A stretch of 46,900 nt of DNA from an uncultured virus (IMG/VR IMGVR_UViG_3300027861_004723). Its lineage: Duplodnaviria > Heunggongvirae > Uroviricota > Caudoviricetes. This document shows, one piece after another, positions 4,390-43,195 of the stretch. The stretch lies in IMG/VR virus record IMGVR_UViG_3300027861_004723. One strand, given 5' to 3'. The notes under the pieces were generated by a model. The model was given only the letters and a program-made list of their open reading frames with translations. It did not search any database and was not told the DNA's origin. Both the position numbers and the translations under genes were made by a program. How positions within the stretch are numbered: position 1 is the stretch's first letter; each line of letters starts with the position of its first letter.

Positions 4390-4464
4390 CCCTTGCTGGG
4401 CTTGCTGCATCCCTAGACAGTAACCGGCTACCATGCTACCTTATGGGCAGTGAAGGGAACGACG

Positions 4465-5097
4465 ATGCCTAGCCTAAAGCACTATCCTGACAAACCCTGG
4501 GAGCGTGGCCCCAAAGACATTCCGTCGCTTGATAACGGCCAAAACATCTGTCAACAAAAGACCGATGGTTGGCGTTGTGAGCTACTGAAAAGCCGTGGGA
4601 TATACGCCATTAGCCGCCATAACAAGCCGCTAGACCTAGAGCCGCACATCCGCGAGCAAGTTGACCTTTTACTGGAGGAGGTTCCAGACCGTAGCCAGTT
4701 TGATGGTGAGTGGCTATCACGCCGGGAAGCTACCAACAAAAAGGCTAAACCCCGTTTGGTACTTTTCGACACTATCCGCCTAAAGAAGCGGTGGAACCTA
4801 CTACTCCCATACCAAGAGCGGTTAGCGCAGCTAGAGGAAATCTTCGCTCGCGCTATTGATAAGCACGGGGCTGATGCTTTTACCAGTGTTATGCTCCCAG
4901 AAACAGCACTTGATGGTGAGTTTCTTAGCTTTTATGAAGCACAAAAGGTGTTACCACACAGCGAGGGCGTTGTTATCAAGCGCAAGAATAGCACACTGGT
5001 AGGCGACCGTAACAAGAGTGTTAAAAACGCTAACTGGGCTAAAGTCCGCTACCGTGCAGCTAGCAGTGGTAGTATGACAATGGACCACTTGAGGTAA
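4465..5097 (+). CDS. ATP-dependent ligase-like nucleotidyltransferase (adenylation domain only)
   Basis: Motifs I KTDGWR, III FDGE, IIIa LFD, IV EGVVIK, V WAKVR; no room for an OB domain. Confidence 0.8.
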   Translation: MPSLKHYPDKPWERGPKDIPSLDNGQNICQQKTDGWRCELLKSRGIYAISRHNKPLDLEPHIREQVDLLLEEVPDRSQFDGEWLSRREATNKKAKPRLVLFDTIRLKKRWNLLLPYQERLAQLEEIFARAIDKHGADAFTSVMLPETALDGEFLSFYEAQKVLPHSEGVVIKRKNSTLVGDRNKSVKNANWAKVRYRAASSGSMTMDHLR

Positions 5098-8863: not shown

Positions 8864-9301
8864 ATGGCAACTCGTGAAGTAGTGCTTGTAGTGGAACAGA
8901 GCGTTCACTATTACATTGAAGACCCAGAGGGTACCTTGACCGAAGCAGAGGTCGTAGCAGCGGCTACGGAAAAGCTAGATAAAGGCGAGCCCGATGAGAA
9001 TCCAGCTAGCGGCTGGCTAAAGGTCACCTCCTGGGCGGTTTCGGGGGTTCCCTTGGACCCGACTGCAGCCAAGACCAGAATGTTAAGTCCAGCGGAACTA
9101 CTAATCTACTTTGAAAGACCGGGATGCAAGCCGTTCACGGAAAAAGAACTAGCCGAACGGTGGGATAACTGCTCGATCAAAACAATTCGGCGGAGAAGGT
9201 CGAGTGGTGAAATACGGTCTTTCAAGCCGGGTCGGGATGCTTTGTTCACTCTTGAAGCCGTCTACGAATACGAACAAAAGATGAGTGGAAACCCATTATG
9301 A
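8864..9301 (+). CDS. Protein with C-terminal excisionase-like (HTH_17/MerR-type) DNA-binding domain
   Basis: FTEKELAERWDNCSIKTIRRRRSSGEIRSFKPGRDALF pattern. Confidence 0.7.
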   Translation: MATREVVLVVEQSVHYYIEDPEGTLTEAEVVAAATEKLDKGEPDENPASGWLKVTSWAVSGVPLDPTAAKTRMLSPAELLIYFERPGCKPFTEKELAERWDNCSIKTIRRRRSSGEIRSFKPGRDALFTLEAVYEYEQKMSGNPL

Positions 9302-9883
9302 CTCAGGCGCAGGCGAAGCCGAGCCAGCCAGTAGTGATAGCCGCAGGCGTTTTTCAAGCCTTTCAGGATTGCATAAAACGCTAGAGGACTAAGATGATTG
9401 CCAAAGAGTGAACAATGAGCACTAATGCCATTATTGCGCTAACAAAGCTAGAAGACGTTTTTCGTCGGTGCTCGGCCACTATTTTGGCGTCTAATGACGT
9501 TGCTATCTTGCTCGTGAGCGTTTATGAGGAAGCCGGTTACGAGGTTCCTGATCGCTTAGTGCAGGAAGCCGACAAATACAACAGCAGTGATAACAGGTAG
9601 GAGCGGAGAATATGATTCACGTTTATTTCACTGACGGAACCGAAAGTATCCACAATACCGTGCAAGAAGCGCAGCAAAATGTGGAAGAAACCATCCTGGG
9701 CTGTGATTTTGCGGTTAGTGTCGAGCAAATTTGCGACGATAATGGCCGTAACTACGCCTGCAACTGGTCGGTAGCTGTTACCCTGGAGTAGCCGCTATCC
9801 CTTGACAGCAACAAACAACAAACATAGAATACACTCTCAACCAACAACGGACACGACGCGGATAACCGCAGCAAGAGAAAACA

Positions 9884-10156
9884 ATGGGTAAGAGCACGAG
9901 TAGCGAAACTAAGGTCAAGCGAGGGCCGGATTTGACCTTGCAAAAGGTCCGCAAGGCGCGGCGCTGCCTCCAAAGCGCGGGTCGTCGCGGCCTTGAGGCG
10001 TTCCTGGGCCACAACCCCGACGTTAAGTCGAACAAGGTCGTGGTGTCCCTTACCAAGCGTGCGGAAGCGTTGCCCGTTCGCCCGCCCAAGGGTAAGCGCG
10101 GCCCCAAGCAGCCCTCCCAGCGGAGCAGCCCCGAGGAGCAGCCTGTTAGCGCATAG
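9884..10156 (+). CDS. Small basic hypothetical protein
   Basis: Promoter 9802-9830; GC3-rich coding pattern. Confidence 0.7.
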   Translation: MGKSTSSETKVKRGPDLTLQKVRKARRCLQSAGRRGLEAFLGHNPDVKSNKVVVSLTKRAEALPVRPPKGKRGPKQPSQRSSPEEQPVSA

Positions 10157-10303
10157 CGCAAGCTAGGAAAACCCACAGAGCCGCCTAACACCCACGGTCG
10201 ATAGGGCGTTGTTAGGCTACGCGAAGCATAACAGTGAAAACAGCAGCATTAAGTTGGCGAAAGACTGTTAGGCGGCTCGCCACAAAACATAGAAACGGCA
10301 ACC

Positions 10304-10636
10304 ATGAGTCTCAAAGTTGATAACTACGATACGTCGATCCCAGTAAAGGATCTTATCAGCCAGGCTCGCTGGCAGTTGGGAGAGCCCGTATGGCGGCTAG
10401 CTGGTCCTGAGATAGCAGCTTTTATCCGTAGTGAGGTTCAGGACGCTCTGCGGGATGCCTTTTACAAAGCTGAGTCGCTTTATATTGACAATATGGTCAA
10501 GCAAGCCGACCAATCATCCCGAAACATGATGAACGCGATTCTGGCTGGAGCAAACCTACGTCTTACCGACGAGACTGATATTGATAAGTCTGATATTGAC
10601 GTTTTTGCCAACCAAAACATTCCAGAAGGCAAATAA
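10304..10636 (+). CDS. Hypothetical protein
   Basis: ORF after a structured intergenic region. Confidence 0.7.
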   Translation: MSLKVDNYDTSIPVKDLISQARWQLGEPVWRLAGPEIAAFIRSEVQDALRDAFYKAESLYIDNMVKQADQSSRNMMNAILAGANLRLTDETDIDKSDIDVFANQNIPEGK

Positions 10637-10814
10637 ACATGAGCGCAGACGCACGAACCTTGATCGATGGGTATGGCGATGACCTGGGCTGGAGTGATTC
10701 CAGTAAGATTGACCTACTCTGTGACTACATTAACAACCAGCAAGACGGCTCCTGCCTCAATGATTTTCTGGAGCGACAAGCCCAGGAAGAAAAGAGTTAT
10801 GATGAGGATTAGTT

Positions 10815-11051
10815 ATGCCCCAAGTACGTAAAACTGTTATCACTTTGACGGTGCTATCAGCCGCCGATGCTGACGCCCCTGATCCTGCCTATAGCAGTCT
10901 TGAAGAAATCACTCAACAGATGGATACAGGCTGTTTCCTGGGTGATTGGATTGCACAAAGTAGTAGCATCCTCCCGGCTGATAAAGTCGAGAATGAGTGC
11001 GTCAAGCTGGGAAACGATGGTAGTTTCTTTGATCTTGACGATGAGGACTAG
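10815..11051 (+). CDS. Hypothetical acidic protein
   Basis: GAGG SD; ends at promoter. Confidence 0.7.
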   Translation: MPQVRKTVITLTVLSAADADAPDPAYSSLEEITQQMDTGCFLGDWIAQSSSILPADKVENECVKLGNDGSFFDLDDED

Positions 11052-11091
11052 CATCCCTTGACAGCAATGAGCTTCTTGGTAGGATGATTTT

Positions 11092-11163
11092 TCAGCCCTA
11101 GCTCAATAGTAGAGCAGCTCCCTGTTAAGGAGATGGTTCCGAGTGCAAATCTCGGGGGCTGAG
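11092..11163 (+). tRNA. tRNA-Asn(GTT)
   Basis: Acceptor TCAGCCC/GGGCTGA, D arm GCTC/GAGC, loop CTGTTAA, T arm CCGAG-TGCAAAT-CTCGG; CCA not encoded. Confidence 0.85.
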
Positions 11164-11172
11164 TGAAAACAA

Positions 11173-11310
11173 GTTTCTGCCTGGGCGTTGTGCCCTAAAT
11201 AGAGGGATGACACTAACGGGTTGGGGACGTGGAGGAAAAGCGGGTGTCTGTAAAACAATACCGCTATAACAAAGCGTTGCAGGGGGCATCATACCCTGCC
11301 AGAAACACCA
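11173..11310 (+). ncRNA. Enlarged tRNA-Tyr-like RNA (138 nt) with expanded D domain
   Basis: Acceptor GTTTCTG/CAGAAAC + ACCA, loop CTGTAAA on an extended stem, T-like arm GCAGGG/CCCTGC. Confidence 0.6.
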
Positions 11311-11489
11311 TACAACTTGGGGGACTATGAGCAATCCTGATATGCAGCAAAAGCTACTGGCCGCGCAGGAGCTACTGCAAGACGATCTAATCACGTTTCT
11401 GGATGGGTTGCCTTCGGACACTGTTACTCACGCTTGTGGTCTAGTTATTGAGAGGTTTAAGCCTCTTTTTGACGAATCGAGCGGCATGA

Positions 11490-11831
11490 ATGAGTAATAG
11501 AGGCGCACCACGAATCTCAAAGCCAGCCAGGACCAAGAATACCTACTACGTCTTTCGTCGTAATGATGGTTATGTTTCTTCGACGTGTGGTAGTCCAGCT
11601 AAGGGCTGGACTGGTACTAATGGCAAAGTTACTACTTTTGAGCAGCTAGGCCAGTTTACCGACTGGGGAGACGCTTACGCGCTTATTGCTAAAGAGCGCA
11701 GGGATACACAGAGTTTGCGAGGCTTACTGCCTAAAGGTGCTTGGCAGGGCGAGGGGGAGCCCCCAGCCTCTTTCGTTCTAGGCTATTTTGGCTTACCTTA
11801 TCAGCCAGGAAAGCGCACACCTATTTCCTAA
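11490..11831 (+). CDS. Hypothetical protein
   Basis: ORF ending just before the promoter at 11843. Confidence 0.7.
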   Translation: MSNRGAPRISKPARTKNTYYVFRRNDGYVSSTCGSPAKGWTGTNGKVTTFEQLGQFTDWGDAYALIAKERRDTQSLRGLLPKGAWQGEGEPPASFVLGYFGLPYQPGKRTPIS

Positions 11832-12307
11832 TCGCCTATCTATTGACAGAAAAGTGGCAAAGAGCTAAGATCAAAGCTCGAAGCAGGGGCGGGCCTGACA
11901 GCCCATAAGGAGCTACCATGATCCAGCTAGCGTGTTTCCTCGACGGTGGGCTTTGTATCTACCTAGCAGCAATCAGTGTCCCGTCCCTGCTGGGGTGGTT
12001 GGGCTTTAGGCGCTTTTGCAAGAGCGGCGATTGCAGTAATCACGACCACTAATGAGGCGAACTGTTACCAATCTGCTAACACGTCTGGCTCCTATTGTTG
12101 CTAGTCGTAGTATCAAGCTAGAAGGCTTGGACGACGCGGAATTACGCTCGTTACTGCTAGCTCTACAGCATATTGAGCAACGTATTAGTCGTGCAGAGCG
12201 AAAAGCCAAACAGCCTCAAACCAGCAACCTTGGCGTAGGTAGCCGGTATCCCTTGACAGGAAAGTGTCTGAGGGCTAAGATCAAAGAACAACGCAGGGGG
12301 CGACAGA

Positions 12308-12793
12308 ATGTCAGCAAAGACTGAAATCCGGGGACCAGGGTTCAAGCTGTTCAATAACTTGAGCGGCACAACCCATATTGAAACCTCTGAGGAGGCGCAA
12401 CAGATTGGTAACCTCCTAAACCTGAAATCCTCACCAACAGCAACGCTTTTGTCGGTGACTTGGGAGCCCACGGTTTATCAGCCGGATAACGACGACGACC
12501 CTTTTAGGGATTTGACTGTCTCTGAGCGGGATCTGGTTGTTTTTGATAGCCCTGCTATCACTCTAGGCTGTAGCATCAGTGACTACTGCGGCGACGGTGA
12601 AACAACGGAGCATCAGGCCCCGAATGGTAAGAACTTTACCGTGCGCGATATGGTAAAGGCTGTTTGCGAAAACCAGCAGCAAACCCGTGGACAAACTGAT
12701 TGGTTCGGTGGAATTGATGTTCACCATATCTACTTTGAGGGCTTGAACCAGTCCGAGGGTAGCGATGTTTGGACTATCTCCTGGGGCTCCTAA
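12308..12793 (+). CDS. Hypothetical protein
   Basis: Promoter 12253-12281, G-rich SD. Confidence 0.8.
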   Translation: MSAKTEIRGPGFKLFNNLSGTTHIETSEEAQQIGNLLNLKSSPTATLLSVTWEPTVYQPDNDDDPFRDLTVSERDLVVFDSPAITLGCSISDYCGDGETTEHQAPNGKNFTVRDMVKAVCENQQQTRGQTDWFGGIDVHHIYFEGLNQSEGSDVWTISWGS

Positions 12794-12860
12794 GCCCTAA
12801 CTAGCCCTTCTCTTTACAGGGATCTCAGCCCGTGCTACCTTATGGGCAGTGGAGGAAAAC

Positions 12861-13139
12861 ATGGCGACCAAGCAAAAGAAGATCATCACCTGCCAGCAGC
12901 CCAGCGGTTGCGAGCGATCCCTGGGCGGCGGGTCCAGTAGGCTCGACACCGAGGAGCTTAACGCCCCAGCGCATTGTGTACTTTGTGGTACCGTCGTATG
13001 CGACGACTGTGTGGCGACCTTGGATAACATTCCGGTTAGTGAGTTTCCGAAGAAACGGCAGCCGGTTACCCGCGACCCCAGCACTACCCACGTTTTCGGA
13101 TGGGTGTGCAGCGATCATTTCAACGAGGACTGGGCCTAA
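12861..13139 (+). CDS. Zn-finger-like hypothetical protein
   Basis: Promoter 12813-12841, GGAGG SD, CxxC pairs. Confidence 0.75.
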   Translation: MATKQKKIITCQQPSGCERSLGGGSSRLDTEELNAPAHCVLCGTVVCDDCVATLDNIPVSEFPKKRQPVTRDPSTTHVFGWVCSDHFNEDWA

Positions 13140-13561
13140 TGCTTGAATTGCGTAATATCACTGATAGCACGCCTAAAAACGCTGCTAGTCTGGCGTGGGT
13201 TGACGTTACCTATGACGGGGCATCGGTTTTCGAGGTTGTCTACCAGAGTGACGCAATCTGGGAAGCTACTGCCGAGTTGGTAACAGAGGAAAATCAAGAG
13301 TGTTATCTCGGTTATATCACCGATCAGGACCGCTTTATTGTTGGTTTTGATACATGGGAAGCCGAGGACGATGGTTTCGGTTGGCGTGACCCCGATAAGG
13401 GCAACAAGGCTAGTGTGCTCTCTTTTGTCCTGCACCAAGGCAAGATCATTGACGTTCGGTCTGTTTCTGGCATGAACCCAATGTTCTATGGCACTGGTAA
13501 TAGCAACCTCAAGATGTTGCACGAGCGGTTCCCAACCTTGTTTGATATTCGGCTGGATTAA
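13139..13561 (+). CDS. Hypothetical protein
   Basis: TAATG coupling, GAGGA SD. Confidence 0.75.
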   Translation: MLELRNITDSTPKNAASLAWVDVTYDGASVFEVVYQSDAIWEATAELVTEENQECYLGYITDQDRFIVGFDTWEAEDDGFGWRDPDKGNKASVLSFVLHQGKIIDVRSVSGMNPMFYGTGNSNLKMLHERFPTLFDIRLD

Positions 13562-13910
13562 AGTGGCAAAGTCACAAACCAATCAGAGTAACAACGAATA
13601 CTGGTCGGCAGTAGACTCCGGTTATTGCTATTTGTGTTCGGCTCGTTTGCCGGATACCCCGAATGGCCCCTGCTACCAATGCCTAAAGAACGGCTAATAT
13701 GAAACTACACGTAAGTAACGTCTGGCTGATTGTGGATACATCAGCGGTTAATGACGCTGATCCTCAAACCGCACAGGAGCGAATCACTTTTGTGAAGGAT
13801 GCCATTAGCGAGGTTAATATGCGTCTGAACGCTAGAAACCTTGGTATTAGCATTGAGGGTTTTATTGAAGATGGGGATATTAGAGTCTCTTAGTAGAAAA
13901 CCGGATTACC

Positions 13911-14240
13911 ATGAATAAAAAGACCCTTGGCTTCCTTGTAGGAGCAATCTTCCTTCAGCTTCAGCTTCTATTTGTTTTTAGGGCTCTCCCTACAAAGGTA
14001 GAGCAAGAACAGCAACAGCAAATCCCTGGATTGCTCGCGGCTGGGCCGGAGATTGTGCCTTTGGCAGTCAAAACAGTATTGATTACTAACGGTGAAACCA
14101 CGATTCTGCTGGATCTTACTACAGGCAAGTGGCGTCATGCGAATTATCACAATGATAGTGGCGACATTTTTGTAGATGCAGGTTGGTCATACAACCCCAT
14201 TAAGATCAATGGAATCTCTGTAGATCCCGACGACGACTAA
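13911..14240 (+). CDS. Membrane-anchored or secreted hypothetical protein
   Basis: N-terminal KK plus hydrophobic stretch. Confidence 0.65.
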   Translation: MNKKTLGFLVGAIFLQLQLLFVFRALPTKVEQEQQQQIPGLLAAGPEIVPLAVKTVLITNGETTILLDLTTGKWRHANYHNDSGDIFVDAGWSYNPIKINGISVDPDDD

Positions 14241-14302
14241 ACATCTCTTGACAGGATCTACCTATCCGTGCAAGATACTGCTTGCAACGGCAAGGTAAAG
14301 AT

Positions 14303-15568
14303 ATGATGATTTTTGATGAGCTACAGGCACGGGGACTGATACACCAATTCACTCTCCCTAATCAGCTTAAAATGTGCGAGTTTCTAAGCACTACTCAATG
14401 TCTCTACGCCGGATTTGATCCGTCTGCCCCTAGCCTGCACGTCGGTAACCTGATTCCCCTATTGTGTCTAAAGCGTTTTCAATTAGCTGGACACCGTGTT
14501 ATTGCGCTTGTCGGAGGAGCAACAGGACAGATTGGTGACCCAAGTGGGCGATCCAGTGAGCGTAATTTATCCAGCTTGGACCTTGTTCAAGTTAATAAAA
14601 CAAAGATCATGGGGCAGCTTAGTAGCCTGCTGGGATCTGGAGAGTTAGTAGACAATCTCGACTGGCTAAAGGATATGTCTTTACTAGATTTCTTGCGTGA
14701 CATTGGTAAGCATTTTACCGTGAATACCATGCTTCGCAAAGATTCGGTAAAGAACCGTCTTGTGAGGGACGGAGACGGGCTCTCTTTTACAGAGTTTAGT
14801 TACAGCTTACTACAAGGGTTTGATTTCCTACACCTTTCTCGCACACGAGGAGTCAGCATACAACTTGGTGGTAGTGACCAATGGGGTAATATCACGGCTG
14901 GTACGGATCTTGTCCGTCGAGCGGATAACAAGACTGTACATGGTATTACTTTCCCGTTGCTCACTAACAGCGACGGTTCCAAGTTTGGTAAGAGCGCAGG
15001 AAATGCGATCTGGCTCGACCCAAAACTTACTAGCCCCTTTGATTTCAGACAGTTTTGGGTTAATACTGACGATGCTGATGTGATAGCAAGGCTTCGCCTG
15101 TTCACCTTTTTGTCTTTAGACGAAATCAATGAGTTTGTTGCTGGGCTAAAAACAAACCCAGGAGCAGCCCAACGAAAGTTGGCTAGAGAAATGACTGTGT
15201 TGGTTCACGGCACAGAAATTGCTGATAGTGTTGAACAAGCAGCGGATGCACTCTTTCGGAATGATCCTACATCAATCCCGGCAGCAGTCTTAGTAGACGC
15301 TCTAAAAGAAGCACCGAAAACTGTTATCAGCAGGGCTGCACTAGAGGCTGGGATTCCCCTTATTGATCTGATAGTTAAGACCGTTCATAAAGGCGCACAG
15401 GCTCGTGGTAAGGCCAGACGTGAGATTGAGGTAGACAAATGCATCTCCCTCAATGGTGTTCGACGGGTGAGCGGCCCAGCGCAAGTAGGCTTGGCGGATC
15501 TGTTGCATGATAGATTCTTAGTTATTAAGAAAGGTAAGCGTTCTTTCTTCTTGGTGGAGGTGTCTTGA
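14303..15568 (+). CDS. tyrS: Tyrosyl-tRNA synthetase (bacterial type)
   Basis: YAGFDPSAPSLHVGN (HIGH), GGATGQIGDPSG, QLGGSDQWGNI, KFGKS (KMSKS), C-terminal S4-like domain ending KKGKR. Confidence 0.97.
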   Translation: MMIFDELQARGLIHQFTLPNQLKMCEFLSTTQCLYAGFDPSAPSLHVGNLIPLLCLKRFQLAGHRVIALVGGATGQIGDPSGRSSERNLSSLDLVQVNKTKIMGQLSSLLGSGELVDNLDWLKDMSLLDFLRDIGKHFTVNTMLRKDSVKNRLVRDGDGLSFTEFSYSLLQGFDFLHLSRTRGVSIQLGGSDQWGNITAGTDLVRRADNKTVHGITFPLLTNSDGSKFGKSAGNAIWLDPKLTSPFDFRQFWVNTDDADVIARLRLFTFLSLDEINEFVAGLKTNPGAAQRKLAREMTVLVHGTEIADSVEQAADALFRNDPTSIPAAVLVDALKEAPKTVISRAALEAGIPLIDLIVKTVHKGAQARGKARREIEVDKCISLNGVRRVSGPAQVGLADLLHDRFLVIKKGKRSFFLVEVS

Positions 15569-15599
15569 CAGAAACTTGCTACCCGGTTAGGATGCTCGT

Positions 15600-15884
15600 A
15601 TGACATTGAAGAAGCAACGTATGCGCTTGGGGAAAACAATCCGCCAAGCTACAGGAATCCCTTTTAGGGAGGCTATCATTCTTGCAAAGATGGTAGTTGC
15701 TGGATGCACCCTGGAAAACTTGTATTCGGAGAGTATCCAGCTTGGCTCCTTTGAGTCTTTTGGCACTACCCAAGTCTCTGATACCAAGATAGATGCGTTG
15801 GGCCGGGTAGAGGTTGCTATTGGGCCTGACGGCTGTTTTTGGGACGGGCGGATTGTTGGTCCGCGAGGAGTTTACAATGGGTGA
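15600..15884 (+). CDS. Hypothetical protein (leaderless); resembles 24598..24831
   Basis: ATG 6 nt after the -10; LGKTIRQATGIP vs LAKTIRSETGVP, both ending in GPRG. Confidence 0.7.
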   Translation: MTLKKQRMRLGKTIRQATGIPFREAIILAKMVVAGCTLENLYSESIQLGSFESFGTTQVSDTKIDALGRVEVAIGPDGCFWDGRIVGPRGVYNG

Positions 15885-16591
15885 GCAAGGTATTACTACA
15901 GGGCTCGTGGGCGACGATGATCTTGAAGATAGCACAGCTTCAATCGAGATTTTGGCGCGTCTCGACCAACTGATTCAACTTTTTGGTGATACCAAGGGGT
16001 TGGAAGATAGCAGCTTTGACTGTTGTAACAATAGCGGCTCTCTAGTCTTCAAGTTTGGTGGTCGGCTTTGGGCTGTTAGCAGTCTCGACATTGCGCCGTG
16101 TGATTAGATGAACATAGCGGGTTTTACTGAGGGCGACAAAGTAGTTGTCTGCAAGCCAACACCGGGCGGGTGGAGCGACACTGATACCAAGGTTATTGAG
16201 TCGCTTCTAGGCAAAACTGGAGAGATTACAGAGTTTGCACAACTGCGCGTATACGTGGAGTTTGATCCTAGCGATTGGGGAGGGGGTAGGCATCAGGGCT
16301 TTGGAGAATGGCTCACTGTCTACGATATTCAAAAGGTTGATGGTTGATGCATGGAGAAACTACGCCGCATGGCGCTGGGACCGTTTCCTAAGACGGAAAC
16401 GCGGGGACCATCACGCCCGCAAAGATCGCTGCGCTTATGTGTTAGACGCTAGCATACCTCTAGTATGCCCGCGCACCCTAAAACGCGGAAACAAAGGCCC
16501 TTATTGTCCGAAACATCAACGTGTTTGGGACCGCGACATCTCTGGACAGTAACCGGCTACAATGCTACCTTATGGGCAGTGGAGGTAAAAG

Positions 16592-16879
16592 ATGGAAATG
16601 CAAACTGGCGTAGATTTCTGGACAGTGCATGGGGGATGGTTCGTATTCTTCCTGTTCTTCTTTCCCCGGCTAACACTGCTATTTTCAAGTGTTGTCTCTG
16701 GTGGGTTTCTGTGGTGGCTGGGTTGGGTGCTTGCTCCCCGATTGTTGACAGCTATCCTGGCTACTTATGGCTTTTGGAACACTAACCCTGTTCTGGTTGT
16801 TTTGACGTGGATGTGGGCTTTGGGTGGTGAGAGCACAGAAAAAGGCACAGCCAGCAAGAGCGGTAAGAGTAGCAGTTAG
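16592..16879 (+). CDS. Small integral membrane protein
   Basis: GGAGG SD; three hydrophobic segments. Confidence 0.8.
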   Translation: MEMQTGVDFWTVHGGWFVFFLFFFPRLTLLFSSVVSGGFLWWLGWVLAPRLLTAILATYGFWNTNPVLVVLTWMWALGGESTEKGTASKSGKSSS

Positions 16880-17148
16880 CTACGTCTCTTGACAGTAAAC
16901 TGCTACCCGGCTAAGATGCAAACTCAACAGGAGCGAGCAGCATGAGCAACACCGAGCGTCAATACGGACTCTTTTCCCGCCCCAAGGGTAGCCCCAAAGG
17001 CACTCGCTGGACTCGCGTTTTCCCGAATATCGGGGGTAACAAGCGGTCGGTGGTGGTGCGCGGCCAAAGCGTTCTAATCAATGCTTGCTTTAGCGGACCG
17101 GACGTGATTGAGGTTCGCCCCCTGCCTAAGCAACGGCAGCGGGCCTAG

Positions 17149-17308
17149 CATGGCTGATACTGATGACCTACTTGGCGGTCACTGGGGCAAGCATCCACGT
17201 TGGCCGGTAGAAGATTGGCAATATGAGGTTGCTAACGGTGATACCAGGCTTGGTTACTGGGACTGGGTAAACAACATGCTTGATATTCATGGTGGTCGAG
17301 AAGGGTAG
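17149..17308 (+). CDS. Small phage protein (WQYEVANGDTRLGYWDWV)
   Basis: ATG MADTDD start; motif recalled from phage hypotheticals. Confidence 0.65.
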
Positions 17309-17576
17309 ATGAGCGACAACGATGTAATGCAGGCATTATCAGTATTAAAGCGTCATGGTCGCTTGGATGAGTCCATGTTCTTTGGAACAGGGCAAGACCG
17401 TGGCACCGATAAAACTTTCTTTTTGCCCGACATTAGCGGGATTATGAAAAACAAAGACAATAAACTATGGATTTATGGGTGCGGTGGGCACCAAGGGAGC
17501 GGAACTGATCTCGACTTTGGCTCCGACAAAAAAAAGCGAGATGCCTTCATACAAAAATGGAAACTGGCTCGCCTGG

Positions 17577-17648
17577 CAGCAATGCTATGCTGATCTGCAT
17601 ATCTTTACAGATCAGCAATGCTATGCTGATCTGCATATCTTTACAGAT
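17577..17648. repeat. Exact 36-bp tandem duplication
   Basis: CAGCAATGCTATGCTGATCTGCATATCTTTACAGAT x2, spanning a stop codon and a -35 box. Confidence 0.95.
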
Positions 17649-17682
17649 AGAGGATGTAAAGCTATACTGTTCTAACAAACGA

Positions 17683-17753
17683 CGCGCAGAAGTCTACGAG
17701 TACGACGCTGGCCTCATAAACCAGAGAATCGGGTGCGACTCCCGGCTGCGCTA
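17683..17753 (+). tRNA. tRNA-Met(CAT), divergent, initiator-like 1:72 mismatch
   Basis: Acceptor CGCGCAG/CTGCGCT, D GTC/GAC, loop CTCATAA, T arm TCGGG-TGCGACT-CCCGG; own promoter 17640-17668; no CCA. Confidence 0.7.
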
Positions 17754-17995
17754 TTTGGAGCTAACATGAATCCAGACCTTAATCCGACTATTACCGTTTC
17801 GATGTCCTTTCGTATTATCTGCCGCCCTCTCTTTGAGAAGGCTGTTGCTGAACTAGACATAGAGTCTGAGGCGTCTGATAAAACTAAGGTCGAGGTGTTA
17901 GTAACACATCTTGATGTTTTGGCCCATACTCGTAGTGTTGCAGAGATTGGGTGGAACGACGTGGGCTTGAGTAAAGTCTATAATGGGGCAGGCTA

Positions 17996-18613
17996 ATGAC
18001 TGAACAAATCATAGTAGGAAATGCTGATATTGTTACCGCGTTTGCGGAACAAACTATTGGCACCAAGGTACTCGACCGAAAGGGTTTTGACGCTCTTTTG
18101 TTGGATGCTATTGCGAACACTGATTTTGCGAAGCAGGATATTCCTGGGCAGGCGTTTATCAAGCTAAATGAGAGCGTAGTTAATATGCTTTCTCCGGGTG
18201 TTGCTACGCGCAATGAGGCAGACCAGCCAGAGGATTTCGTCATTAGGCGCTACCGCGAGGGTTGCAAAATGTATCTGCGTCGGTCAGTAGCAGAGGCTCA
18301 AGGCCGGAATAAGGCAACTGGTGGCGCGATTGTCGTCTACACAGCGCCAGGCTATCTGGGTGACCCGGATTTGCAAGGCGAGACGACTGCAATCCTCAAC
18401 GAGCGCCAGAGGGTAATCGAAAACGGATATACGCATATTCTGGTTGCTGTTTTGGGCTTTAGTGGGCCGGATTCACCACTTACACCCTTTCGCTTTGTAC
18501 ATAACCTTGCAGGAGGCAACAGGGAGGCCCAAATCTGGTCCGCTAGCAAGATTCGCCGCAAGGCTAAGGAGATCATTGAGTTCGCTAACAGTTATGTTCT
18601 AGTAGCGGATTAA
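17996..18613 (+). CDS. Conserved hypothetical protein (possibly DUF3228-like)
   Basis: 205-aa ORF; VVY...ILVAVL...PLTPFRFVHNLAGGN pattern; family assignment is recall only. Confidence 0.6.
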   Translation: MTEQIIVGNADIVTAFAEQTIGTKVLDRKGFDALLLDAIANTDFAKQDIPGQAFIKLNESVVNMLSPGVATRNEADQPEDFVIRRYREGCKMYLRRSVAEAQGRNKATGGAIVVYTAPGYLGDPDLQGETTAILNERQRVIENGYTHILVAVLGFSGPDSPLTPFRFVHNLAGGNREAQIWSASKIRRKAKEIIEFANSYVLVAD

Positions 18614-18625
18614 GGCAAAAACAAA

Positions 18626-18668
18626 AACTCGTGGATCACTTGACACGAGTTGGCGGCAGAGGTATAAT
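18626..18668 (+). promoter_or_regulatory. Perfect consensus promoter overlapped by inverted repeat AACTCGTG/CACGAGTT
   Basis: TTGACA 18640-18645, 17 bp, TATAAT 18663-18668. Confidence 0.85.
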
Positions 18669-18829
18669 GCCCCTGTGGAACCTGAATCTAAACAATATGA
18701 ACATGAAAACTGCGATTCTGGCAGGATTTACGAGCATGGCGGGTGCCCTTTGTGCCCGCCGCCTGTAGCTTGTTATTGCCCTAATTGCAGTATTTCGTGG
18801 GATTAAACATCCCTAACTGCAAGTGACTA

Positions 18830-19219
18830 ATGACCTGGTGGACAAAGAAAACAGTAAAAGAATTGGAAGAAGTGGTTGGGTATCACATTGATACTTGTCC
18901 CGAGTGCCAGCGGTGCCTAGAAAGCCCGCCGCCCGACGATGATGACAATGATGAGCCCTACTTTTGCCCGGAAGGCGAGGAGCTAGTAGAGGAGTTTTCT
19001 GATGCTGAAACCTACTATTCTTGGCAACACAGTTTCCCAGGAAATGATCCTAACTACTCCGAGTTTTGTCCGTGCAATTCTTGTTTCATCCAAACAATGA
19101 CACGTTCGATTGATCCTGCTAATTCCAAACTGGAGAAGCGTATCAAGCGTATCAAGGGGCTCAAGAAAAGAAACAAGCAGCGAAACAAGAAGAACAAGAA
19201 AACCAAAAAGAAAACTTGA
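18830..19219 (+). CDS. Cys-rich protein with Lys-rich C-terminal tail
   Basis: ORF composition. Confidence 0.7.
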   Translation: MTWWTKKTVKELEEVVGYHIDTCPECQRCLESPPPDDDDNDEPYFCPEGEELVEEFSDAETYYSWQHSFPGNDPNYSEFCPCNSCFIQTMTRSIDPANSKLEKRIKRIKGLKKRNKQRNKKNKKTKKKT

Positions 19220-34190: not shown

Positions 34191-35345
34191 ATGCCCCTAA
34201 ATGTACAGAAGTATCTGCGTGATGGGGGCACCCTAGAGGGGCTTACTGAGGATCTTGGTATCCGCATCCATCATCATTCCGAGCTACCCCTTGTGGGATT
34301 TAGCTATAGCCAAATCGACAGCCCTAAGACGAACAACATCGTACGTGAGAGCCGGGGCCTTACTCTGGAAAAAGGCTCCTGGCGTATTGTCGCTAAGGCT
34401 TTCAACCGCTTCTTCCGTCTAGGAGAGTTTGCGGAGGAGTACGAAACTTTCAACTGGAGCGATTTTGATTGCTATACCAAGGCTGATGGTAGCCTAGTAT
34501 TGGTCTATAACTATCAGGGAAAGTGGTATGCCAAGACTCGTGGTAGTTTTGGAGGCGGCGAGGTTCCAAACAATCTGCCTGATTACTCCCCCAGTTTCAG
34601 TGAGTTGTTCTGGGACATCATGAAGGATAAGGGCATTGATCTTAGCAAGGTTTTGGATCCTGCTAACACCTATGTTTTCGAGATGTGCAGCAAGTTTAAC
34701 AAGGTTGTTCGGCTTTACGAAAAGCCTACTGCCTACCTACTTGCTGTTTTTAACAACGAGACTGCAAAGGAGCTTGCTCATGATTCCGTGGATACCCTTT
34801 CTGTGGAAGCTGGCCTGGATCGAGTGGAGCGATTCCACTTTACCTCTCTTGGGGAGGTCCAGGCTTATATGAAGCAGCAAGAGGATGCGGACCCCACTTA
34901 TGAGGGGGTTATCGTTTGCGACGACAAGCTGTTGCGCTTCAAGGTAAAGAGTATCACTTATGATGCCCTGCATCATATGTTTGATAACGGAAACATCTAT
35001 AACCCGAAGCGCCTTGTTCCTTGGGCTCTGAACCCTGATCCTAGCACTCTGCTAGAAACATACCCAGAGGTAAAGGAGCACCTTGATGCTGTTAAGGGCA
35101 AGGTAGACGAGTCTTACGACCAGCTACTAAAGGTCTGGAAAGAGCACCACAAGATTGAGGAGCAACGGACATTCGCCCAGGCTATTAAGGGCAAGACACC
35201 TTTCATGGGTCTACTGTTTGCCCTTCGTAAGAAGACTGGTATCCGAGGCCCTGGCGGGTTCGCCCCTGGCGAACAAACCGAGGAGCAGCTTTATACTCTT
35301 TGGCGTGATAGCGTGGACGGGATTGTTAAGGTTCTGTTCAAGTGA
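34191..35345 (+). CDS. T4 Rnl1-type RNA ligase
   Basis: RESRGL, FNRFF, motif I KADGS, FE, motif IV YEGVIV, motif V KVKSITY; AGGAGG SD. Confidence 0.9.
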   Translation: MPLNVQKYLRDGGTLEGLTEDLGIRIHHHSELPLVGFSYSQIDSPKTNNIVRESRGLTLEKGSWRIVAKAFNRFFRLGEFAEEYETFNWSDFDCYTKADGSLVLVYNYQGKWYAKTRGSFGGGEVPNNLPDYSPSFSELFWDIMKDKGIDLSKVLDPANTYVFEMCSKFNKVVRLYEKPTAYLLAVFNNETAKELAHDSVDTLSVEAGLDRVERFHFTSLGEVQAYMKQQEDADPTYEGVIVCDDKLLRFKVKSITYDALHHMFDNGNIYNPKRLVPWALNPDPSTLLETYPEVKEHLDAVKGKVDESYDQLLKVWKEHHKIEEQRTFAQAIKGKTPFMGLLFALRKKTGIRGPGGFAPGEQTEEQLYTLWRDSVDGIVKVLFK

Positions 35346-38678: not shown

Positions 38679-39022
38679 AGGTAGTTACGAGCTTTGAACT
38701 TTGATCTTAGAGACAGGGATTAGTGCCCTGCGTGCTGATTATCCGAGGGTCGGATGGCAAGACGCCACTCTTAATAAGTGGTAACACTGGGTTCGATTCC
38801 CAGTCGGAACAAGTAATCAGTCCAGTGATTGAGAATATGTTATATTAAAGTTATTACTCAACACTGTTAGTTCTTGAAAGTATAAGATATTTACTACTAT
38901 GGACCTAGACTTGACCTAGACTTGCGGCCACCATGCCATTACGCCTAGCATAAAAGACTCCATAATAAATATAGAAATAAGAACTAAGCTCTAAGATCAA
39001 AGTTCAAGGCTCGAAACTACCT
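38679..39022 (+). ncRNA. ~345-nt multibranch RNA closed by a 34-bp inverted repeat, with an embedded tRNA-like (UAA) branch
   Basis: Arms 38679-38712 and 38989-39022 (32/34 Watson-Crick + one G-U); promoter 38628-38656; internal helices tile the interval. Confidence 0.75.
38740..38811 (+). tRNA. Degenerate tRNA-like domain, anticodon TAA, short variable loop
   Basis: D GTC/GAC, CCACT-CTTAATA-AGTGG, CTGGG-TTCGATT-CCCAG; acceptor only 5 bp (TCCGA/TCGGA). Confidence 0.55.
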
Positions 39023-43108: not shown

Positions 43109-43115
43109 CACCAAT

Positions 43116-43188
43116 GGAGGCGTAGCTCAGATGGTAGAGCAGCAGGCTTTTAACCTGCGGGTCCAGGGTTCGATCCCCTGCGCCTTCA
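43116..43188 (+). tRNA. tRNA-Lys(TTT)
   Basis: Canonical cloverleaf: GGAGGCG/CGCCTTC, GCAGG-CTTTTAA-CCTGC, CAGGG-TTCGATC-CCCTG. Confidence 0.93.
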
Positions 43189-43195
43189 TCAACAT

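Follow-up and report, generated by a model that had tools for sequence, protein, structure and literature searches.

What is encoded at positions 11173-11310 (+ strand) of the uncultured virus record IMGVR_UViG_3300027861_004723, immediately downstream from a tRNA-Asn gene and some 3 kb upstream from a phage gene for tyrosyl-tRNA synthetase (TyrRS)? The window analyzed here is the whole stretch of 46,900 nucleotides (nt), a 46.9-kb portion of a 66.9-kb marine metagenome contig, and the sequence in question (hereafter, the element) is 138 nt long. An earlier note on this DNA, made without database searches, had described it as an oversized mimic of a tyrosine tRNA (tRNA-Tyr). We propose, with moderate confidence, that the element is a real RNA gene originating from an expanded class II tRNA-Tyr, a non-decoding look-alike that would be processed from a co-transcript with tRNA-Asn.

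Sequence and predicted fold of the element

The two ends of the element form an acceptor-like closing helix of seven pairs, all Watson-Crick (5' strand GUUUCUG, 11173-11179; 3' strand CAGAAAC, 11300-11306; pair probability, P, of 0.88-0.99 in the ViennaRNA ensemble), with G1-C72 and U3-A70, followed by A73 (11307) and an encoded CCA (11308-11310). The 3' strand of this helix is abutted, with zero spacer, by a firm T-like hairpin of 6 base pairs (bp) with a 9-nt loop, GCAGGG-GGCAUCAUA-CCCUGC (11279-11299; P 0.95-0.98). The description given in the earlier note therefore stands for the letters and for the helices of the top half, including the 9-nt T-like loop, but not for a short variable hairpin or for a GUA loop as the preferred fold.

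The oversized 5' ("D") domain and its linker were placed by the fold ensemble at 11180-11225, and about 59 nt separate the closing helix from the long arm, close to the 60 nt previously noted for the D domain. The 5' domain holds a 4-bp hairpin (11193-11196/11203-11206; loop AAAUAG; P of about 0.9), which covers the D arm recognized by eye, CCC-UAAAUAGA-GGG (11193-11206); D-like mini-hairpins of this type occur 15 times in the window. In the predicted fold, the anticodon stem is indeed lengthened: a 53-nt arm (11226-11278) consists of a 5-bp base helix, an 8x8 internal loop, a second 5-bp helix (11239-11243/11261-11265) and a tip bearing the heptamer CUGUAAA (11248-11254). The tip may adopt either 3 bp with a 7-nt loop or 3+3 bp with an AAA triloop. 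The minimum free energy structure pairs G-U-A and leaves the triloop, the fold with the 7-nt loop lying 0.8 kcal/mol higher, within the error of the method. The heptamer is thus present, but its display as a 7-nt loop on 3 bp (UGU/ACA) has a P of 0.07-0.08. The variable hairpin read at 11268-11278 was not recovered: 13 nt lie between the anticodon-like arm and the T-like hairpin, the 3-bp hairpin has a P of about 0, and these bases pair instead with 11226-11230 (P 0.85-0.99), closing the 53-nt arm. When the co-transcript was folded as a whole, the tRNA-Asn cloverleaf and the element stayed separate domains.

Tyrosine identity had been attributed to A73, the GUA anticodon and the variable arm. 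According to a review of these rules, A73 and U35 are critical, and G1-C72 is the bacterial form of the first pair (PMC9976931). A73 and G1-C72 are found in the element, and U35 among the letters of its heptamer, whose display as a 7-nt loop has the low probability given above; a long variable arm is not supported by the predicted fold.

Co-occurrence of the tyrosine features

Seven-bp helices followed by NCCA were found 12 times in the window, as against 9.7 expected (100 simulations). When a hairpin of 5 bp or more was also required to abut the helix, with no spacer, two occurrences were left, for 0.08 expected. The second of these (34976-35066) combines a perfect 7-bp helix and CCCA with a 5-bp hairpin that abuts the helix; it falls within the coding sequence of an RNA ligase and is probably due to chance. 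A CUGUAAA hairpin (at least 3 bp) combined with a 7-bp helix and ACCA was not found in 40 Mb of simulated sequence, and the tyrosine grammar gave two matches in 880 kb of real DNA, the element itself and a phage tRNA-Tyr gene on another contig (L085, 16998-17086); the grammars were written after the element had been seen, and their hits are strong hints rather than clean P values. The combination of tyrosine features is not attributable to chance: G1-C72, A73, U3-A70, CUGUAAA and CCA co-occur in cloverleaf order far beyond random expectation, in line with the designation of the element as a tRNA-Tyr mimic.

Transcription unit and adjacent synthetase gene

The element is located in a tRNA transcription unit. 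A sigma-70-like promoter (11058-11085, + strand; TTGACA, 16 nt, TAGGAT, with TG ahead of the -10 box; 10 of 12 matches), one of eight + strand sites with a -35 box of TTGACA or TTTACA in 9000-19000, has its predicted start at about base 1 of a canonical tRNA-Asn(GUU) gene (11092-11163, + strand; ARAGORN 11091-11164; Rfam RF00005, 59.2 bits) without an encoded CCA. A 9-nt spacer, UGAAAACAA (11164-11172, + strand), separates this gene from the element, a spacing that matches the look of tandem tRNA genes. The element occupies the gap from tRNA-Asn to the ribosome site of the next gene in its transcription unit (11327-11497, + strand; ATG at 11327), which encodes a 56-amino acid (aa) product assigned to no family. 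The encoded CCA of the element is absent from the other three tRNAs examined in the window, in which blastn-short identified no paralogue of the element.

The TyrRS gene, about 3 kb away as the earlier note had it, is complete (14282-15568, + strand; 428 aa; Pfam PF00579, 3.2e-79, and PF22421, 6.1e-09); its product has an intact class I core, a C-terminal SYY domain and the motifs HVGN and KFGKS. The gene starts with TTG, and the first signature motif is HVGN rather than the usual H-x-G-H, KFGKS being intact. No canonical tRNA-Tyr was found in the 46.9-kb window, about 20 kb of the 66.9-kb contig lying outside it.

The stretch is wholly or partly contained in 17 public runs, 10 of which have at least half its sampled words; no RNA run is listed among these 17. 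Four DNA runs compared over 10000-13000 displayed zero differences inside the element (11228-11255 being uncovered in one run) and a single G>A, at 10450, in one of the four. The identity of the DNA across these runs argues against an assembly artefact; by the same token, its invariance within the element means that it provides no covariation signal.

Proposed origin, processing and role

We infer that the element is expressed, processed into a stable RNA and bound by a protein partner, with or without charging. It would be a class II tyrosine tRNA, of bacterial or phage type, expanded by about 50 nt, which would have kept the top half of the tRNA (the 7-bp acceptor helix on the T-like hairpin, A73 and CCA) together with the tyrosine heptamer, now on a lengthened arm, and lost the canonical D and T loops of its ancestor. 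Transcription with tRNA-Asn would start from the promoter at 11058-11085. RNase P recognizes acceptor/T minihelices with a 3' RCCA; it would be expected to cut before G11173, a cleavage that would also free a short 3' trailer of tRNA-Asn. Trimming from the 3' end would then halt at the encoded CCA, leaving a stable 138-nt RNA. Decoding on the ribosome is unlikely, because the acceptor/T stack has 13 layers, the elbow motif formed by the T and D loops is missing, the stem below the anticodon-like loop is short and the extra mass lies 5' of the anticodon arm. The RNA most likely serves instead as a non-decoding look-alike, which may be bound, and possibly tyrosylated, by TyrRS, or may draw off host factors aimed at tRNA-Tyr; it could act as a substrate, regulator or decoy for the phage TyrRS, as an aminoacyl donor, or as a decoy for host nucleases directed against tRNA-Tyr.

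Hosts attack specific tRNAs, tRNA-Tyr among them, and phages respond with tRNAs of their own (PMC11555353, PMC12673091). For tyrosine in particular, PMC11555353 reports that a phage tRNA-Tyr counters a defence that degrades tRNA-Tyr, rescuing infection from retron-Eco7. A fully private tyrosine system, in which the phage TyrRS tyrosylates the element and the host nucleases acting on tRNA-Tyr are evaded or soaked up, seems to us improbable. If it did exist, tyrosine charging, or a signal dependent on tyrosine, would survive a host defence destroying tRNA-Tyr, and the element would be to a bacterial virus what the tyrosylatable tRNA-like structures are to plant viruses.

Detection by tRNA models and search for relatives

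Several results, in addition to the post hoc nature of the grammars and the low probability of the 7-nt loop, weigh against a tRNA-Tyr-derived RNA gene. ARAGORN made no call on the + strand of the element at its default, -ps60, -ps80, intron and mitochondrial settings, and Rfam gave no match at E≤10 in 10950-11500. The whole-molecule fold has a z-score of -1.41 (for comparison, -0.83 for rnaD and -4.57 for rnaC, two RNAs of phage T4). A covariance model built from four rnaC sequences had 20 matches in the window at E≤10, none overlapping 11173-11310. An ORF of 28 codons (11244-11330, + strand), with a GTG start, a GGAGG 8 nt upstream and a TGA overlapping the ATG at 11327, overlaps the 3' half of the element. 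The gap in which the element lies is unremarkable in itself: the window has many stretches of 100-400 nt in which the + strand shows no ORF of 35 aa or more, and 18 of the 27 gaps listed measure at least 100 nt. Finally, no relative of the phage or of the element was found in the collections searched, and hence neither covariation nor conservation could be called upon.

These searches covered GenBank phages, in which blastn with queries of 901 nt and 7.9 kb yielded nothing relevant and tblastn with a 78-aa neighbour gave no match. With TyrRS and the Rnl1-type RNA ligase of the window as tblastn queries, all matches were below 60% identity, the best listed being 44.9% and 37.1%. In IMG/VR, the 113-aa neighbour and TyrRS identified no relatives, exact patterns for the T-like arm and the loop hairpin had no match, and neither did a T-loop pattern of the type seen in the element; two IMG/VR contigs bearing an Rnl1 gene had the ligase as the sole gene in common with the window. 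In the JGI metagenomes, TyrRS retrieved its own contig at 100% identity, all other matches being at 50% or below. The T-loop pattern had 19 matches in 185,579 species genomes, a number close to that estimated for chance, and all failed the helix test.

The element has the 7-bp acceptor stem, discriminator base and 3' CCA of a canonical tRNA, but neither the 5-bp T stem with a 7-nt UUCRANY loop nor the GG of the D loop; UUCRA is found nowhere in its sequence. The silence of ARAGORN and Rfam, together with the missing UUCRA T loop and GG D loop, indicates that it is not a canonical tRNA. Two further identities were considered and rejected. A transfer-messenger RNA (tmRNA) was called by neither ARAGORN nor Rfam, and the third pair is U3-A70 rather than G3-U70. 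For an intron-containing tRNA, ARAGORN remained silent with option -i, and no single excision tried by eye gave a family-like cloverleaf. The minus-strand ORFs across the element matched no Pfam family.

A family of cryptic class II tRNA-Tyr genes in phages

A model built from the element as a single sequence was run on 37 of 80 TyrRS loci, on four T4-type loci and on the window; at these loci it matched the element alone. The same model hit an 89-nt gene at 16998-17086 of L085 (13.5 bits; E 0.1 over 35 kb), an IMG/VR contig from an unrelated phage having only the RNA ligase in common with the window. This gene folds as a perfect class II cloverleaf, with G1-C72, A73, CCA, a 5-bp stem bearing CUGUAAA, a variable hairpin and the T loop AGCAUUA. 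A search with a neighbouring protein returned L085 itself alone.

A motif scan derived from the element and the L085 gene gave at least 119 matches in IMG/VR, 20 of which, among the matches listed, passed the helix filter. They represent at least 12 distinct genes of 86-89 nt (on L085, L090, L097, L102, L115, L128, L144, L154, L158, L187, L200 and L201). The alignment of these 12 genes revealed an invariant D loop (UAAAGA), T loop (AGCAUUA), U8 A9 and encoded ACCA, with compensatory changes in 17 of 20 pairs. These cryptic tRNA-Tyr genes form a real family. They lie in tRNA arrays, several of them adjoining tRNA-Asn or tRNA-Asp; none of the 12 was called by ARAGORN or hit by Rfam RF00005 at E≤1. 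The functional tRNA-Tyr of phage T5 scored 45.8 bits with the family model, despite its normal loops. On L102, the family member lies 5 nt after a canonical tRNA-Tyr. None of 11 family records carries a TyrRS gene, some of these records being rated 88-100% complete, and odd tRNA-Tyr genes in phages are therefore not as a rule partnered by a phage TyrRS. A family missed by standard tRNA finders matters for phage annotation; our literature search on non-canonical T loops in phage tRNA-Tyr returned nothing on such a family, without this being a claim that it is unpublished.

The family and the element have in common a G-C or C-G first pair, A73, the encoded CCA, the CUGUAAA loop, a setting among tRNA genes and a failure to be recognized by ARAGORN and Rfam. 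Both T loops are built on GCAU-A without being identical (AGCAUUA in the family, GGCAUCAUA in the element), a resemblance that is partly circular because the T-loop motif was drawn from the element and the L085 gene; both D loops are A-rich and closed by 3 bp (nUAAAGAnn in the family, UAAAUAGA in the element). Unlike the 138-nt element, family members are 86-89 nt long, with an anticodon stem of 5-6 bp, a real variable hairpin and U8 A9, where the element has CC after the helix. There was no oversized member among the 20 filtered matches. Scores obtained with the family model belong with the results that count against our interpretation: the element received 10.1 bits, over 11244-11310 only (E 1.8 window-wide and 0.012 over 301 nt), the tRNA-Asn gene scored higher (16.4 bits), and an nhmmer profile of the family matched the element at 11245-11256 only, the CUGUAAA segment, with 1.1 bits. 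Membership of the element in this family is not demonstrable. Nevertheless, the existence of phage tRNA-Tyr genes invisible to the standard detectors raises the prior probability that the element is derived from a tRNA-Tyr.

Other unusual genes were observed on the contigs examined. A tRNA gene on L115 (628-750, - strand) and L090 (730-852, - strand) has a canonical body (RF00005, 52.5 bits) with an insert of about 54 nt in the anticodon loop; as judged by eye, the removal of about 51 nt would leave CUGUUAA, an Asn-GUU loop, and the insert falls short of the size of a group I intron. L085 has two further CCA-encoding tRNA-like genes missed by ARAGORN, one resembling tRNA-Pro(UGG), with GGCGGAG as its T loop (16907-16986; RF00005, 40.7 bits) and another for which the Tymovirus tRNA-like model was the sole match, a weak one (17444-17516; 21.4 bits, E 0.39). 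On the IMG/VR phage contig L086 (10996-11308 and 13673-13874), the tRNA array has as neighbours a tmRNA gene (Rfam, 86 bits) and a group I intron (70 bits).

Alternative explanations

The rival that survives best, which we nonetheless consider unlikely, denies the element any role in trans: it would be a decaying tRNA-Tyr pseudogene, or a cis-acting punctuation mark directing RNase P between tRNA-Asn and the mRNA. The position of the element in the leader of the genes at 11327-11831, within one promoter-defined unit, is consistent with punctuation, and the loss of the D- and T-loop consensus, the failure of the tRNA models and the orphan status of the element in the collections searched would all be expected of a pseudogene or a cis signal. 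Conversely, 13 consecutive Watson-Crick pairs across the acceptor and T-like helices and an intact ACCA and CUGUAAA would be surprising after an unselected insertion of about 50 nt, and punctuation alone has no need of a tyrosine loop.

It is distinctly doubtful that the element is a working, if bizarre, tRNA-Tyr, its 5' domain being tolerated or removed and its charging ensured by the phage TyrRS, to provide Tyr-tRNA when host tRNA-Tyr is depleted or cleaved; the two would constitute an orthogonal, defence-resistant pair. Such a tRNA would account for the full set of tyrosine identity elements at the acceptor end and the exact loop heptamer, as judged by the rules in PMC9976931, and for a complete TyrRS gene in a window without a canonical tRNA-Tyr; this last absence concerns 46.9 kb of the 66.9-kb contig, with about 20 kb outside. 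Also in favour of this reading are the rescue of infection from retron-Eco7 by a phage tRNA-Tyr (PMC11555353) and the tRNA-Asn-type gene with a ~54-nt anticodon-loop insert, described above for another phage contig. A 183-nt Escherichia coli tRNA-Tyr with an aptamer in its variable loop was charged (with a kcat/Km 2.7-fold lower), bound by EF-Tu and active on the ribosome (PMC5397188). However, in that study, insertions in the D loop and T loop resulted in no detectable tRNA, and the extra bases of the element lie 5' of the anticodon arm rather than in the variable loop. Moreover, the stem adjoining the loop has 3 bp and the loop register a P of 0.07, the T-loop consensus is absent, the acceptor/T stack has 13 layers, and the predicted arm would hold the loop at roughly double the distance from the junction that is usual in a tRNA.

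That the region is an ordinary leader with a 28-aa micro-gene (11244-11330) and coincidental tRNA-like features is very unlikely, since this reading, for which the GGAGG 8 nt before the GTG, the ATGA overlap with the next gene, the frequency of 7-bp helices with NCCA (12 vs 9.7 expected), the second minihelix with NCCA inside the RNA ligase gene and the fold z-score of -1.41 can be cited, has against it that the + strand has 63 copies of GGAGG, most of them lacking a usable start, that 28 open codons are common in random sequence, that the joint tyrosine grammar was found 0 times in 40 Mb of simulation and that the position right after a tRNA is left unexplained.

Genomic setting

The window contains small + strand genes preceded by recurrent sigma-70-like promoters. 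One promoter-bearing segment (12235-12299) also has matches with 7-12 differences on further contigs of three public runs, and it may be a promoter module that recurs at other places in this phage or in its relatives. Four tRNA genes were identified: the tRNA-Asn(GUU) described above, a tRNA-Lys(UUU) (43115-43190) and two weak ones, of Leu-UAA and CAU types. The CAU-anticodon tRNA (17683-17753; Rfam, 36.7 bits; T loop UGCGACU) was missed by ARAGORN; just upstream, positions 17640-17668 resemble a promoter, and about 35 nt look by eye to be present as a tandem copy (17578-17647). In the Leu(UAA)-type gene (38739-38812; Rfam, 35.3 bits), the inner acceptor helix is just 5 bp long; around the gene, with a 5-nt bulge, lies another perfect 7-bp helix (38735-38741/38814-38820), after which come U and CCA (overall span 38735-38824).

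The window also encodes an Rnl1-type RNA ligase (34191-35345), a second ligase-like or capping enzyme-like protein (4450-5097), a radical SAM protein and an HNH endonuclease. No polynucleotide kinase was identified among the window ORFs scanned. Taken together, the Rnl1-type ligase, the second ligase-like gene, tRNA-Lys(UUU), tRNA-Asn(GUU) and TyrRS resemble a set of answers to host attack on tRNAs.

Comparison with known systems

The tRNA-Tyr(GUA) of phage T5 (NC_005859, 35340-35427) resembles the element in its class II outline, G1-C72, A73, encoded CCA and CUGUAAA. Unlike the element, it is 88 nt long, with D and T loops of the standard form, and ARAGORN detects it; its annotation describes the gene as convertible to an effective suppressor. 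Canonical phage tRNA-Tyr is known to counter a defence that degrades tRNA-Tyr (PMC11555353).

For tyrosylation of an atypical substrate, the closest parallel comes from the tyrosine-accepting tRNA-like structure (TLS-Tyr) of bromoviruses such as brome mosaic virus (BMV), an oversized viral RNA that departs from the classical L shape, has CCA at its end and receives tyrosine by way of A73 and the anticodon-like U35 and A36 (PMC9976931). The element has in common with this RNA its viral origin, large size, predicted departure from the L shape and terminal CCA. It differs from it in that the BMV structure forms the 3' terminus of a eukaryotic plus-strand RNA genome, with C1-G72 and a pseudoknotted acceptor, and there is no homology between the two. 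BMV TLS-Tyr shows that TyrRS can accept a mimic that is not L-shaped, and is thereby the functional precedent for the idea put forward in the earlier note.

The nearest likeness in overall design is to RNA C of phage T4 (species 1 RNA, rnaC; NC_000866, 70908-71046), which is 139 nt long, for 138 nt in the element. In T4, rnaD (119 nt) begins 1 nt downstream from tRNA-Arg, and rnaC (139 nt) comes 6 nt after rnaD; the element likewise lies directly after a tRNA gene. The predicted fold of rnaC, in an alignment of four sequences of which 11 of 47 pairs were compensatory, is a four-way junction with an acceptor-like helix stacked on the T arm, a 5' arm of about 70 nt and a second arm, and the fold predicted for the element has the same topology. 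In contrast to the element, rnaC has a T loop of canonical sequence (UUCGAAU) and U-U mismatches in its closing helix, and it lacks both an encoded CCA and a tyrosine loop; it is conserved in 748 phage records, whereas no relative of the element was found in the collections searched. Because the rnaC covariance model misses the element, the likeness is one of design rather than of demonstrable descent.

The functions of RNA C and RNA D are still given as unknown in the literature (PMC3014915, PMC9697503 and PMC12685909). As a tRNA-like RNA beside a tRNA, probably not engaged in decoding, the element would be analogous to RNA C, and it is a variant of the long-known, unexplained class of phage tRNA look-alikes that has been recognized since that RNA was described. 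It differs from RNA C in keeping an amino-acid identity, that of tyrosine, 3 kb from a phage TyrRS, which makes it directly amenable to in vitro charging assays. The finding of charging or binding would tie the phage tRNA look-alikes to the attack of hosts on tRNAs and to the response that phages make with tRNAs of their own.

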